Shown: positions 6,384 to 28,192 of the stretch, piece by piece | Position numbering within the stretch: position 1 is the stretch's first letter | Layout of the letters: the number at the start of each line of letters is the position of its first letter | IMG/VR virus record: IMGVR_UViG_3300009509_000015 | Span: 1 to 64,000 of that record | Length of the DNA: 64,000 nt | Direction: 5' to 3' (one strand) | DNA from: a virus | The notes under the pieces: model-generated | Databases searched by the model: none | What the model saw: only the letters and a program-made list of their open reading frames with translations | What the model was told of the DNA's origin: nothing | Position numbers and translations under genes: made by a program

Positions 6384-6596
6384 ATGACCAAGATACTTGA
6401 CTATAAAATCTTCGGTGACCATTCTAAGGATGGGTTGGAAGAGCAGGTAAGAGAGTTTCTTGAGAAGCAGAACGGCAATGGTTGGGTTCCGCATGGTGGG
6501 ATTACAGTACACGGAACAAGAGATGAGATAAACTGTTTCTGCCAAGTCATGGTGAAGATTAAAAAGTCTTGGTGGCAAAAGCTACTAGGATTGTAG
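6384..6596 (+). CDS. DUF1737-like small protein
   Basis: LEEQVREFL...GWVPHGGI...QVMVK pattern; GGAGGT RBS. Confidence 0.6.
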   Translation: MTKILDYKIFGDHSKDGLEEQVREFLEKQNGNGWVPHGGITVHGTRDEINCFCQVMVKIKKSWWQKLLGL

Positions 6597-6670
6597 GGAG
6601 GCATAGCTCAATTGGTCAGAGCACTGGACTGTCGATCCAAAGGTTGCGAGTTCGAGTCTCGTTGTCTCCG
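6597..6670 (+). tRNA. tRNA-Asp(GTC)
   Basis: GGAGGCA/TGTCTCC-G; loop CTGTCGA. Confidence 0.88.
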
Positions 6671-6811
6671 CTAGTCCGATTCCGTTGCGTGGCAGCGCAC
6701 GTTAGTTCTCTCGTAGTGACTAATGCCAGACCTGCCCTTGCTGGACGGATAGGCTATAAACCAGTTTTTTTCCACCCCGCTTCTGGTGTAAAACAAAAAG
6801 CGGGGCGACTC

Positions 6812-6883
6812 AGGTCGTTCGGTTAATTGGCAAACCACTTGTCTCCAAAACAAGGACTGTTGGTTCGAATCCAGCACGACCTG
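6812..6883 (+). tRNA. tRNA-Trp(CCA)
   Basis: CTTGT-CTCCAAA-ACAAG. Confidence 0.9.
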
Positions 6884-6986
6884 CCTTCGGAGGGAGAAAG
6901 GGAAAATGTTTTCCATCTTTGTCATTAGCCCTTTCGTGGAGAGGGAGGTCTGACCCAGGCTAGCCCTCTCCCCCGACGGCCAACAT

Positions 6987-7057
6987 TGCGGAGTAGAGTA
7001 ACGGTCACTCAATGGTCTCATACGCCATCTACGTGGGTTCGACTCCCACCTCCGCTA
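6987..7057 (+). tRNA. tRNA-Met(CAT), initiator-like
   Basis: U1xU72 mismatch; loop CTCATAC; lacks three consecutive G:C pairs. Confidence 0.8.
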
Positions 7058-7062
7058 CCTAC

Positions 7063-7339
7063 GGGGATGAACGGCTTCGACAGTATGGATGAAGCTAGCA
7101 CTGCAAGCCGATAAGTATCACATCGTTAAAAGATACAAAAAACTAAATGCAAACACATTTAAGAACTTTGTTGGATCATACACTCCAGCACGCCACCTTG
7201 CCACTCCGCAAGTAGTGTAAGAACTGGCGACGAATAACTTGCAAATCCCTCCAAAACGCAAGACCCCCTGAATAATGTAAGCTTGTAGACTGTGCTAGAG
7301 TAAGCATATTGGACATGGGTTCGATTCCCATCATCTCCA
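7063..7339 (+). ncRNA. ssrA: tmRNA (compact)
   Basis: GGGGATGAACGGCTTCGAC...GGACATGGGTTCGATTCCCATCATCTCCA; G3:U70; tag ORF 7149-7220 ANTFKNFVGSYTPARHLATPQVV*. Confidence 0.93.
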
Positions 7340-7344
7340 CCTAT

Positions 7345-7429
7345 GCTGGTGTGACGGAACTGGCAGACGTGTATGGCTTAGACCCATATGCCCTTAACGG
7401 GCGTGCAGGTTCGACTCCTGCCATCAGCA
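7345..7429 (+). tRNA. tRNA-Leu(TAG)
   Basis: Type II; TATGG-CTTAGAC-CCATA. Confidence 0.92.
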
Positions 7430-7525
7430 CCTATTCCTGTGAGGCACTATCGTACCTTATACTAGTAGTAGGTATCCACAGGATGACATGTTAGGGAGGG
7501 AGGGTAGCGCCCTCTTCTCCCGCCA

Positions 7526-7600
7526 CCTGATGTGAAGGGAATTGGCATACCTGGGGTACTCAAAATACCTCGTTTGGTGGTTCGACTCCACCCATCAGGA
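7526..7600 (+). tRNA. tRNA-Leu(CAA), short variable arm
   Basis: GGGTA-CTCAAAA-TACCT; 5-nt V-region. Confidence 0.85.
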
Positions 7601-7612
7601 CTGGAGGATTAA

Positions 7613-7813
7613 ATGAAGAACAGAAATTGGATTATATATTTGTCAAAACTTTTCTATGTCCTGGCTGGCATGAGTTTATTTGCTAGCCTTGATGCTTTTT
7701 TACACGACATTCATTATGCAGAAGGAATAGCAACAGCTATATTATTTATAGTTCTCGTTTACTGTGGACATAAGATTATGTGCGCATGGAGAACCATAAA
7801 CTGCGTTAGTTAA
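7613..7813 (+). CDS. small two-TM membrane protein
   Basis: GGAGG RBS; two hydrophobic segments. Confidence 0.6.
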   Translation: MKNRNWIIYLSKLFYVLAGMSLFASLDAFLHDIHYAEGIATAILFIVLVYCGHKIMCAWRTINCVS

Positions 7814-7822
7814 GGAGCAATT

Positions 7823-8494
7823 ATGGGTGTACTGATATATCAAATGGGAAGAGTAGGATCAGTAGCAATAAACAGGGCACTAAAAAACGTAGGAGTTGAT
7901 ACACTACATGCGCACTACCTAGCTAATGGAGGAGAGCACTATAAAAGACTTCTTGCTGGTGACGATTTAATAAAAGCTGCAACGTATGACATAGTTACTC
8001 TTGTTCGTGATCCCATAGCACGTAATCTATCCGAGTATTTTAGGCGCATGAGTCCTAAAGTTGAGTATGATTACCAGTGGTTATACAAAAAGTTCATGAA
8101 AGACTTTAACCACATATGGCCTTTAGTATGGTTTGACCTAGAGTTTCTACCATTTACTGGTTTAGACCTGCTATACTGGGGCTTTCCTATAGAGCATACA
8201 GATACATTTCAAACAGCAATAGGACGTAACGTACTTGTGCTTCGCACAGATAAGCTAAACCAAAAATCAACCAGTGAAGCACTGTCAGAGTTTACTGGAA
8301 AAGAAATAGCAGAAATTCCAGTGGCTAATAATATATCAGAGAGACCTGGGCTTGATGTAATATACGATGCGTTCCTTTCTCAAGTGTGCTTTCCTGAACC
8401 TTTTGTAGAGTTCTTTTATAATAGTGCATACAGCATAGTATTTTTTACTGCAAAAGAACGAGAGCGCTTTATGAAGAGGTGGACATGCCAATAG
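7823..8494 (+). CDS. NKWYS-family (capsular polysaccharide synthesis) sulfotransferase-fold protein
   Basis: YQMGRVGS and TLVRDPIARNLS motifs; YNSAYSIVFFT...RW. Confidence 0.75.
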   Translation: MGVLIYQMGRVGSVAINRALKNVGVDTLHAHYLANGGEHYKRLLAGDDLIKAATYDIVTLVRDPIARNLSEYFRRMSPKVEYDYQWLYKKFMKDFNHIWPLVWFDLEFLPFTGLDLLYWGFPIEHTDTFQTAIGRNVLVLRTDKLNQKSTSEALSEFTGKEIAEIPVANNISERPGLDVIYDAFLSQVCFPEPFVEFFYNSAYSIVFFTAKERERFMKRWTCQ

Positions 8495-26600: not shown

Positions 26601-26601
26601 T

Positions 26602-26967
26602 ATGACTAAACGAAAACAAGACTTTGTAACTTGGACAGGCAACGACGAAAAGATAGAGTTCACTGTTTATCAAGATGACGGTGTTACTCCTTTAAACATT
26701 TCTGCTGGCACACTTTCTTGGATAATGAAAGAATCAAGAACAGCAACAGCAGCATTAATTGAAAAGGAAACTGGTGGTCAAGGTATTTCCATTACTGATG
26801 GTGCTAATGGAAAGTGTCAAGTAGACCTTGATCCAGCAGACACTAATGGTTTAGAGGGCGCAAAATACTTTCATGAACTGAAACTAACTCTTTCTAATGA
26901 AACCAAAACAGTATCAGAGGGTACGGTCACGATCCATAGAAGTGGTTTCTCTGATCTTACCCCTTAA
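26602..26967 (+). CDS. BppU N-terminal-like Ig-fold virion protein
   Basis: GNDEKIEFTVYQDDGVTPLNIS...ITDGANGKCQVDLDPADT...YFHEL. Confidence 0.6.
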   Translation: MTKRKQDFVTWTGNDEKIEFTVYQDDGVTPLNISAGTLSWIMKESRTATAALIEKETGGQGISITDGANGKCQVDLDPADTNGLEGAKYFHELKLTLSNETKTVSEGTVTIHRSGFSDLTP

Positions 26968-26970
26968 CCC

Positions 26971-26999
26971 TTGACAAATATTTTCAATTGTAGTATAAT
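26971..26999 (+). promoter_or_regulatory. sigma70 promoter for the second tRNA block
   Basis: TTGACA-17-TATAAT; nearly identical to the 3852 promoter. Confidence 0.9.
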
Positions 27000-27068
27000 G
27001 CTAATCGAGAGAACAGAATGTCAATGGTTAGGAGTTTCGGGAGGTCTCCACAAAACCTCCCACTTTTT

Positions 27069-27139
27069 GCCTTCATCGGTTAATGGTAAACCGTGTGGCT
27101 TCCAACCACTGACTGCGAGTTCGAGTCTCGCTGAAGGCT
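27069..27139 (+). tRNA. tRNA-Gly(TCC)
   Basis: Loop CTTCCAA; U73. Confidence 0.87.
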
Positions 27140-27163
27140 CAGTAAAATTTTGAGGAGGCAACT

Positions 27164-27379
27164 ATGCCATTATATGAGTACAAGTGTGGTAATCCTAGCT
27201 GTAATAACATTCACGAAGAGGGTAGACCCTCTGCATATAGGGATGTTTCAGCAGAGTGCCCCATATGTGGGAGTGAGGCAGAAAGAATTTATTCAACAGG
27301 GCAAACGTTTGTTATCCCACATGACAAACCAGCAGTTTATAAAAACGCTGCTGGTGAGACAGTACGCAGGGTAACTTAA
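27164..27379 (+). CDS. FmdB-family Zn-ribbon protein
   Basis: MPLYEYKC...CPICGS.AERIYS. Confidence 0.85.
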   Translation: MPLYEYKCGNPSCNNIHEEGRPSAYRDVSAECPICGSEAERIYSTGQTFVIPHDKPAVYKNAAGETVRRVT

Positions 27380-27386
27380 CAACTTC

Positions 27387-27463
27387 GGGGGTGTAGCTCA
27401 GTATATGGTTAGAGCAACATTCTTACAAAATGGAGGTCGCTGGTTCGAGTCCAGCCATCCCCA
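27387..27463 (+). tRNA. tRNA-Val(TAC)
   Basis: Loop CTTACAA. Confidence 0.88.
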
Positions 27464-27520
27464 CTAGCCTTATCTACCATGTGTAGAAAAAGATCAGAGC
27501 ACCTTAAGGGTGCTCAGCTA

Positions 27521-27592
27521 GCCTTCAAAGCATTAATGGTGATGCAGTCGGCTCTTAACCGATAGATTCAGGTTCAAGTCCTGATGAGGGCA
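27521..27592 (+). tRNA. tRNA-Lys(CTT)
   Basis: GTCGG-CTCTTAA-CCGAT. Confidence 0.88.
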
Positions 27593-27594
27593 CT

Positions 27595-28128
27595 ATGCTA
27601 GTACGTGATAAGCTTACTAAAGAAGTTTTAGAAGATTATAAACGCCAGGGTTTATCAACCCATCAAATAGCAAGACTTATAGGTTGTAGCCAACCCTATG
27701 TCTCTAAAGTTGCTATACAAAGAGGCATACATTTTACTAGAGAAAAAGGAACTTGTATCGTTTGTGGTAATACATTAAATAGAGGTAAAAAATATTGCTC
27801 TCACCAGTGTCAAAAGAATGAACAACACCAAAAACTTATAAGCCAATGGTTGTCTGGTGAATGGAACGGGCTTAGAGGAAAAAAAGTTACTGCCCTTTCT
27901 AAAACAATAAGAGATTATTTGTTAAAGCAAGCAGACTACAAGTGTTCTAAATGTGGTTGGGCAGAAGTAAATGAATCTTCTGGTATGATACCGTTAGAAA
28001 TAAATCATATTGATGGTAATCACAAAAATAATAGACCAGAAAATTTAGAAGTTGTATGTCCTAACTGCCATGCACTAACACCAAACTTTAGAGGACTAAA
28101 TAAAAACAGTACTCGCACGCACCGATAG
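27595..28128 (+). CDS. HNH homing endonuclease with N-terminal HTH
   Basis: CSKCGW...LEINHIDGNHKNNRPENLEVVCPNCH. Confidence 0.9.
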   Translation: MLVRDKLTKEVLEDYKRQGLSTHQIARLIGCSQPYVSKVAIQRGIHFTREKGTCIVCGNTLNRGKKYCSHQCQKNEQHQKLISQWLSGEWNGLRGKKVTALSKTIRDYLLKQADYKCSKCGWAEVNESSGMIPLEINHIDGNHKNNRPENLEVVCPNCHALTPNFRGLNKNSTRTHR

Positions 28129-28192
28129 TTCTAAGTAGGCAAAACGCATGTCTTGTAAACATGATTTGTGGGATCGTGGCCCACTCGGTGCT
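28119..28192 (+). tRNA. tRNA-Thr(TGT), atypical T-loop
   Basis: CATGT-CTTGTAA-ACATG; T-loop ATCGTGG. Confidence 0.82.

Follow-up and report, generated by a model that had tools for sequence, protein, structure and literature searches.

In a cluster of transfer RNA (tRNA) genes of an uncultured sediment phage, nine or ten protein genes end either precisely at the following tRNA gene or a few bases into it, in a layout that looks like an extreme form of the tight packing seen in coliphage T5. The genes lie in a window of 64,000 nucleotides (nt), the whole stretch of DNA analysed here, which represents 64 kb of a single 75,360-bp viral record (IMG/VR IMGVR_UViG_3300009509_000015) estimated to be 85% complete. 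The + strand carries every RNA gene of the window as well as the junction ORFs, promoters and terminator described below; the RNA genes include those for a transfer-messenger RNA (tmRNA) and a divergent RNase P RNA. We consider it fairly probable that the overlaps represent the final stage of tight packing by deletion in co-transcribed operons of tRNA genes and small accessory genes.

A sequence-only reading of this DNA had listed most of these stops, and recomputing the first stop for each tRNA in each frame returned all of its coordinates. Counted from the first nucleotide of the tRNA (+1), the stop codons of four open reading frames (ORFs) fall at nt 8-10 of the next tRNA: an NKWYS-domain gene (8485..9168, alternative start 8479) ends with a TGA in tRNA-Leu(taa) (9159..9233; ARAGORN, Rfam 48.2 bits), a hydrophobic ORF of 69 amino acids (aa) with a tRNA on either side (11775..11984) with a TAG in tRNA-Arg(gcg) (11975-12047), a 95-aa ORF with a Shine-Dalgarno (SD) sequence (15278..15565) with a TGA in tRNA-Ser(tga) (15556-15643), and an HNH endonuclease gene, likewise bounded by tRNAs on both sides (27595..28128), with a TAG in tRNA-Thr (28119-28194). 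The dUTPase gene dut (14701..15141, 146 aa) has no stop of its own and ends with a TAG at nt 20-22 of tRNA-Glu(ctc) (15120..15191; ARAGORN, Rfam 58.7 bits). A 33-aa ORF that is doubtful as a gene (9338..9439, with an SD spacer of 12 nt) ends inside tRNA-Ser(aga), its TAA lying at nt 40-42.

In four other ORFs the stop is flush with the tRNA, its last base being position -1. These are a 70-aa ORF with a strong SD and no family match (6384..6596, TAG) before tRNA-Asp(gtc) (6597..6671; ARAGORN, Rfam 68.9 bits), a candidate leaderless 49-aa membrane peptide (9949..10098, or 9913..10098 from a TTG; TAA) before tRNA-Cys (+1 at 10099), a 127-aa gene resembling nucleoside 2-deoxyribosyltransferases below the Pfam cut-off (10503..10886, TAG) before tRNA-Arg(tcg) (+1 at 10887), and a 169-aa ORF with a strong SD (15736..16245, TAA) before tRNA-Lys(ttt) (+1 at 16246). 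Missing from the earlier list was a 102-aa ORF with a tandem TAG-TAA (12223..12534, the first stop ending at 12531), whose TAA is flush with +1 of tRNA-Pro (12535).

For comparison, the same ARAGORN-plus-ORF procedure was run on the window and on a null set of 233 IMG/VR loci (about 2 Mb, 1254 tRNAs) fetched with two generic tRNA patterns. Junctions were defined as same-strand ORFs of at least 60 aa with a stop within 60 nt of +1, which gave 13 in the window and 208 in the null; those lying within -12..+22 (11 and 108, respectively) formed a packing-matched subset. Because the nt 8-10 and flush classes were defined after the data had been seen, and because the window was selected from a very large scan, the p-values are to be read as upper bounds on surprise. 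The nt 8-10 class accounted for 4/13 junctions in the window and 16/208 in the null (p=0.021), or 4/11 versus 16/108 in the packing-matched subset (p=0.088). Flush stops accounted for 4/13 versus 8/208 (p=0.003), or 4/11 versus 8/108 when packing-matched (p=0.014), and the two classes together for 8/13 versus 24/208 (p=6e-5), or 8/11 versus 24/108 (p=0.001). The nt 8-10 class is what tight packing yields, with no enrichment over equally packed junctions, and the flush class is modestly over-represented.

The frequency of the first class reflects the tRNA itself. Nucleotides 8-10 form a stop triplet (TAG, TGA or TAA) in 54% of the 1254 null tRNAs and in 62% of those here, a consequence of the conservation of U8, of a purine at 9 and of G or A at 10; this U8-R9-R10 (R, purine) spells TAG or TGA in 21 of the 34 tRNAs of the window. 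Among null junctions it was also the commonest single stop position (16/208, 7.7%, corresponding to 36% of overlapping junctions), and flush stops made up 3.8%. TGA occupies nt 8-10 in all three Leu tRNAs, two of the three Ser tRNAs and Arg(tct), irrespective of its use by an ORF, so the tRNAs are not adapted to the ORFs. As for the flush class, the usual leader preference of RNase P is for U at -1, which was found in 32% of the 34 tRNAs here compared with 60% of the 1254 other viral tRNAs, A or G at -1 making up 53% here; a relaxed preference at this position would permit flush TAA and TAG stops.

The ends of the encoded proteins also point to the tRNA boundary. Ten dut homologues end at or just past ...GGI(V/L)GNS(K). 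The phage dUTPase reads ...GGIVGNSK followed by AVSANG, six codons supplied by nt 2-19 of tRNA-Glu, and the natural end of the family corresponds to +1 of this tRNA (15120). We found 20 metagenome loci with dut homologues, and no tRNA was present near the homologue at the 15 loci scanned. The last conserved Trp, common to three NKWYS paralogues of the phage, lies four codons before the borrowed stop of 8485..9168. The conserved sequence of dut and of one NKWYS gene ends, overall, 1-4 codons from the tRNA +1.

All five overlapping ORFs (the four ending at nt 8-10, and dut) are in the phase of nt 8-10, compared with 42% of the overlapping junctions in the null, and a cut at +1 would leave a 2-nt partial codon in each of them. 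The NKWYS and dut junctions retain an out-of-frame stop triplet at -3..-1 (TGA for NKWYS). A 1-nt deletion just 5' of a flush stop would turn a flush solution into a read-on overlap, and would account for both the shared phase of the five overlaps and the two leftover out-of-frame stops. Most dut homologues end ...GNS-stop, and AGT-TAA/G minus one T is AGT-AA/G (the slash marking the tRNA boundary), as observed.

Independent measures show that the genome is packed unusually tightly. The distance from a tRNA to the start of the following ORF was at most 15 nt in 12 of 14 cases, compared with 40% of 312 in the null, tRNA-tRNA spacers were 2-5 nt long, and gene-gene junctions (from approximate gene calls) overlapped in 57% of cases, with a median gap of -1 and seven overlaps of 8 nt. 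Start codons lie 1-15 nt after tRNAs, and the SD abuts or lies in the acceptor stem. In ORF 11775 and the HNH gene the ATG follows the ARAGORN end of the upstream tRNA by 1 nt and the SD lies inside the acceptor stem, the acceptor 3' strand of tRNA-Arg(tct) (11700..11773) containing the AGGAG of the former and that of tRNA-Lys(ctt) (27521..27593) the GAGGG of the latter; other ORFs after a tRNA mostly begin 8-15 nt downstream, with the SD directly after N73-C. The 3' strand of helix P1 of the RNase P RNA and the -35 hexamer of the promoter that follows have bases in common. All junction types are at or near their shortest workable length.

Four promoters and a single strong terminator serve the array. 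Three of the promoters (3851-3884, 4830-4863 and 9912-9945) are copies of a conserved 34-nt sequence, CTTGACAAAC-N-TATAAT, that matches 12/12 positions of the consensus, each with a perfect sigma-70-type core of TTGACA-17-TATAAT. The first core (3852..3880) lies upstream of tRNA-Ala, and the second (4831..4859) upstream of a unit comprising a kilobase RNA, the His and Phe tRNAs, ORF 6384, the Asp, Trp and Met tRNAs, the tmRNA and the Leu tRNAs. The third (9913..9941) is predicted to start a transcript at about 9948 that runs to a strong intrinsic terminator with a 14-bp stem and a T run (16420..16451), which closes the main array. The fourth promoter, a sigma-70-type match of 11/12 (9275..9303), lies upstream of tRNA-Ser(aga), tRNA-Ser(gct) and the RNase P RNA. 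In the third promoter, the -35 hexamer doubles as the P1 3' strand of the RNase P RNA and as the TTG start of ORF 9913. This ORF, if real, more likely begins at ATG 9949, close to the predicted transcript start, because TTG 9913 belongs to the -35 hexamer of this perfect promoter. The junctions leave no space for promoters, so the ORFs and tRNAs would have to share transcripts.

RNA data were available as contigs from RNA libraries (three runs), which cannot show RNA ends; they were scattered, uncovered parts are uninformative, and DNA carry-over is possible. Some of these contigs, from two studies, bridge junctions (9052-9222, 15080-15230 and 14903-15131) at a depth of 2-4, for which the same carry-over is possible. 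Only one RNA was clearly abundant among them, a 680-nt contig of the gene-free stretch 5295-5974, which reached a depth of 98.7 in a random-primed sediment metatranscriptome compared with 2-4 for the rest of the array.

Comparison with the curated record of coliphage T5 (AY543070) revealed a closely similar arrangement. T5 is likewise a siphovirus whose tRNA genes are interspersed with small ORFs, HNH endonuclease genes and stable RNAs whose function is unknown, and its genes hegD, hegC, T5.069 and T5.057 run 23, 14, 24 and 6 nt into the next tRNA, with T5.065 flush. Same-strand stops flush with, or no more than about 25 nt inside, the next tRNA occur in the present array as five overlaps and four flush junctions, which places it with the T5-type layout. 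The two differ in that none of the listed T5 junctions is at nt 8-10, and that the present array has more ORF-to-tRNA junctions (13), of which a larger fraction use the two shortest solutions. The 30 kb of the curated T5 record that was covered carries no annotation for a tmRNA or RNase P RNA. The stable RNAs of the T5 tRNA region include the 719-nt RNAX, which adjoins tRNA-Arg and may be compared with the abundant 5295-5974 RNA.

We propose a working of the array that draws on established RNase P and trans-translation biology. The array would consist of tRNA genes intermixed with small accessory genes and be transcribed as a handful of long operons, in which a gene before a tRNA would have two shortest solutions: a stop flush at +1, or no dedicated stop and reading on to U8-R9-R10. 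Host RNA polymerase would make long precursors on which ribosomes translate the ORFs, and RNase P, with host protein and host and/or phage RNA, would cut at each +1. The upstream messenger RNA (mRNA), freed and without its 3' tRNA, would decay fast, and ribosomes stuck on the cut messages of overlapping genes would be rescued by host or phage tmRNA. As a side effect, processing of the tRNAs thereby probably makes these mRNAs shorter-lived; short message life and occasional non-stop ribosomes would be a tolerated cost rather than a dedicated regulatory circuit, and the resulting brief expression of the cargo would suit an HNH nuclease.

Several known systems resemble parts of this scheme. In animal mitochondria, according to the Ojala-Montoya-Attardi model, tRNAs flank most genes of long polycistronic precursors, and RNase P together with 3' processing releases the messages (PMC8601606, PMC4394434). 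This is the closest conceptual analogue, with genes abutting tRNAs without a spacer. Mitochondria, however, complete partial stops by polyadenylation, whereas the phage stops are all complete triplets, either inside the tRNA or flush with it; bacterial translation is also coupled to transcription and can use the precursor, and for the phage RNA such processing is a prediction. In the secG-leuU transcript of E. coli, a protein gene is likewise followed by a tRNA, and a single RNase P cut frees an mRNA with a half-life of <30 s (Mohanty and Kushner 2007, PMC2241853); secG differs in having its own stop and a spacer, at a single junction outside any array. In relation to trans-translation (PMC3985003), a +1 cut in the phage overlaps would yield an mRNA without an in-frame stop, a substrate of tmRNA-SmpB, and the phage tmRNA gene lies 2-8 kb from most junctions of the main array. 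Compared with that system, the phage has a tag ending in ...PQVV instead of ...ALAA and lacks a SmpB of its own.

Packing is supported because nt 8-10 is the commonest position in the null and is not enriched among packing-matched junctions, because the other measures of packing are tight, and because the natural ends of dut and NKWYS adjoin the tRNA +1 and the layout of T5 is alike. Some observations weigh against it. Flush stops are about 4- to 8-fold commoner than in other phages (p=0.003; packing-matched p=0.014), and a stop triplet at -3..-1 precedes 9 of the 34 tRNAs compared with 6% in the null (p=1e-4). Since these triplets include two tRNA-tRNA spacers, something in addition to ORF ends favours TA(A/G) in front of +1. 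None of the other loci sampled has more than two nt 8-10 junctions. Co-transcription and cleavage are steps that we infer, and the 1-nt deletion scenario is drawn from two out-of-frame stops and the shared phase (5/5 versus 42%).

Both RNAs named by the sequence-only reading were recovered in the array, with different degrees of certainty. The tmRNA (7063..7341; ARAGORN and Rfam) is separated by 3 nt from tRNA-Met upstream and by 3 nt from tRNA-Leu(tag) downstream, and matches the full RF00023 model at 134.7 bits. Its tag of 23 residues, ANTFKNFVGSYTPARHLATPQVV (7149-7220), starts with GCA after an A-rich stretch and ends ...ATPQVV, so that it has no ALAA-type degron at its end; the tags of four tmRNAs from other viral contigs are 12-15 residues long and end in MAA, MAA, LAA and IAA. 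A hydrophobic tag end of the ALAA type is the signal for proteolysis, and trans-translation prefers ribosomes with a short mRNA 3' extension (PMC3985003). The RNase P RNA is a divergent class-A molecule (9578..9919), 5 nt after tRNA-Ser(gct). In a permissive Rfam scan its match to RF00010 spans the full model with an E-value of 3e-18, and its score of 66.2 bits falls under the gathering cut-off of 100. In the full-length alignment (1-367, E-value 4e-20) a predicted catalytic core is recognisable, with P1-P4, CR-I, CR-V with compensating P4 pairs, J5/15 and a GGU-containing P15. The stretch expected to form the specificity-domain helices is occupied by a 67-aa ORF (9656-9859) with a strong AGGAGG SD and CxxC-like cysteines. 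Neither SmpB nor RnpA nor a CCA-adding enzyme is encoded in the 75-kb record, so the tmRNA and RNase P RNA would work with host proteins. These RNAs plausibly add capacity for a heavy tRNA-processing load. In the collection of papers searched, we found none on phage tRNA punctuation or phage-encoded RNase P RNA.

The sequence-only reading had proposed that these RNAs form a circuit, in which phage RNase P strips the stops from the overlapping genes and phage tmRNA tags their products so as to destroy, limit or time them, while the flush genes escape. Its first step, the removal of stops by maturation, would hold for the five overlapping ORFs if they are co-transcribed and cut at +1. Its second, that the flush group is left intact, would not hold: RNase P-freed mRNA decays fast, as the <30 s half-life of secG mRNA illustrates, so flush mRNAs would be short-lived after the cut as well (PMC2241853). 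The circuit as a whole appears quite improbable. It gains from the presence of the tmRNA, the RNase P RNA and the junctions in one co-oriented array, from the partial codon that a +1 cut would leave in every overlapping ORF, and from the frequency of the two classes taken together, which exceeds that in the packing-matched null (p=0.001). However, junctions of these types are also found in the 30 kb of T5, where neither tmRNA nor RNase P RNA is annotated, and in null loci negative for tmRNA by ARAGORN, the tag ends in PQVV without an ALAA-type degron (PMC3985003), and the SmpB and RnpA missing from the record would have to come from the host, where they already serve host RNAs. Moreover, the one 77-kb viral contig of this kind in the sample (IMGVR_UViG_3300027313_000002), with 36 tRNAs in 11 kb and a class-A RNase P RNA of full score (75249-75576, 263.7 bits), has a single ORF-to-tRNA junction, at +13. 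As to association across loci, tmRNA-bearing null loci number four with six junctions, and RNase P RNA occurs in one of five tRNA-rich viral contigs, with that single junction, so these counts have no power. An overlap rate explained by compaction had been set beforehand as the result that would speak against the circuit, and compaction explains the nt 8-10 class and, to a large extent, the other junctions. Were a dedicated tagging circuit ever demonstrated, it would represent a novel form of gene control in phages; the evidence gathered here does not point to one. Rated as very improbable is a related proposal, a purposeful mitochondrion-like operon in which the phage's own RNase P RNA speeds the +1 cuts, making non-stop mRNAs of a particular set of cargo messages, and the tmRNA, with its unusually long tag that lacks a final AA, adds to those proteins a stable C-terminal extension or a phage-specific degradation signal. 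Such an operon would constitute a programmed switch from untagged early to tagged late protein forms.

It is rather unlikely, but less so than tagging, that the punctuation was selected as a general limiter of expression, independent of tmRNA, by which the HNH nuclease and similar cargo would be produced for a short time and in small amounts. A gene bounded by tRNAs, with its SD in one acceptor stem and its stop in the next D-arm, could be translated only as long as the precursor is unprocessed. This form is seen in the HNH gene and ORF 11775, the T5 HNH genes hegC and hegD also overlap the next tRNA, and an RNase P cut destabilises the upstream mRNA (PMC2241853). On the other hand, housekeeping-type cargo (the dUTPase and NKWYS enzymes) overlaps in the same way, starts within 3 nt of the tRNA end make up 7% of tRNA-to-ORF junctions in other phages, and selection for limited expression would be argued from this one genome. 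An artefact, with ORFs that are not genes, tRNAs that are pseudogenes or assembly frameshifts producing false read-through, seems extremely improbable and is already largely refuted. Several ORFs (6384, 9913/9949, 9338, 11775, 15278 and 15736) match no family, PHROGs gave no match for the unannotated ORFs of the array, and a codon-usage log-odds score was uninformative, antisense controls scattering as widely as the short candidate ORFs. Yet the dUTPase, NKWYS and HNH proteins are clear family members, the last, with matches to HNH_3 and HNH, being a homing-type HNH among the overlapping ORFs, and the match of 10503..10886 is weaker, below the Pfam cut-off. Most junction ORFs have good SDs, and the junction tRNAs score 44-71 bits against an Rfam cut-off of 29, with ARAGORN and Rfam concurring on +1 for all of them. 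An independent DNA run from another sample was identical at every junction covered, which argues against assembly error, and the identical 146-aa dUTPase was recorded from 19 contigs.

Tight packing of this kind has consequences beyond the present phage. Gene callers and tRNA finders often treat overlaps of genes with tRNAs as errors; here they are real, and it is useful for annotation that the U8-A9-G10 of the tRNA itself is the most frequent stop position where genes meet tRNAs in this way in viral contigs. The array shows how far phage genomes can be squeezed and at what cost, since translation and tRNA maturation compete for the same RNA.

The record encodes a siphovirus-type phage, with a tape-measure protein, portal, major head protein, large terminase and family-A DNA polymerase. 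Searches with megablast and blastn against 50,697 phage records gave no match to the window, and IMG/VR searches with the 169-aa flush ORF, the NKWYS gene and the DNA polymerase gave no close relative and at most one match of 25% identity. The nearest dUTPase homologues (41-50% identity) include proteins of Anaerolineaceae metagenome-assembled genomes, a weak hint of a Chloroflexota host.

ARAGORN identified 31 tRNAs and Rfam three more (at 4894, 14115 and 27387), for a total of 34. CCA is encoded by none of the 34 tRNA genes, nor by the tmRNA (3' ends, for example, at 4024-4030, 6367-6373 and 7339-7345). Position 74 is C in 31 of the 34; of the 14 that encode CC, 13 have T as the next base and none has A. 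The tRNA at 14115 that only Rfam called is a paralogue of tRNA-Glu(ctc), with 84% identity over 32 nt (14109-14140 and 15114-15145), and the upstream flanks of the two are similarly TA-rich (TAATTA and TAGTAA, respectively); this pair suggests that a tRNA was duplicated together with its leader. Within the kilobase RNA region lies a tRNA-like gene (5576-5650) called with a four-base anticodon (tctg) in an 8-nt loop. The motif ATTGTAG showed a weak excess, with 25 matches where 14.9 were expected; a count of 25 was reached in 2 of 100 shuffles. Finally, ORF 10975-11397 contains tandem proline-rich repeats with a period of 42 nt, TCCTTA(C/T)CCACCACCAGAGGCTACAGC, at 11068-11190.

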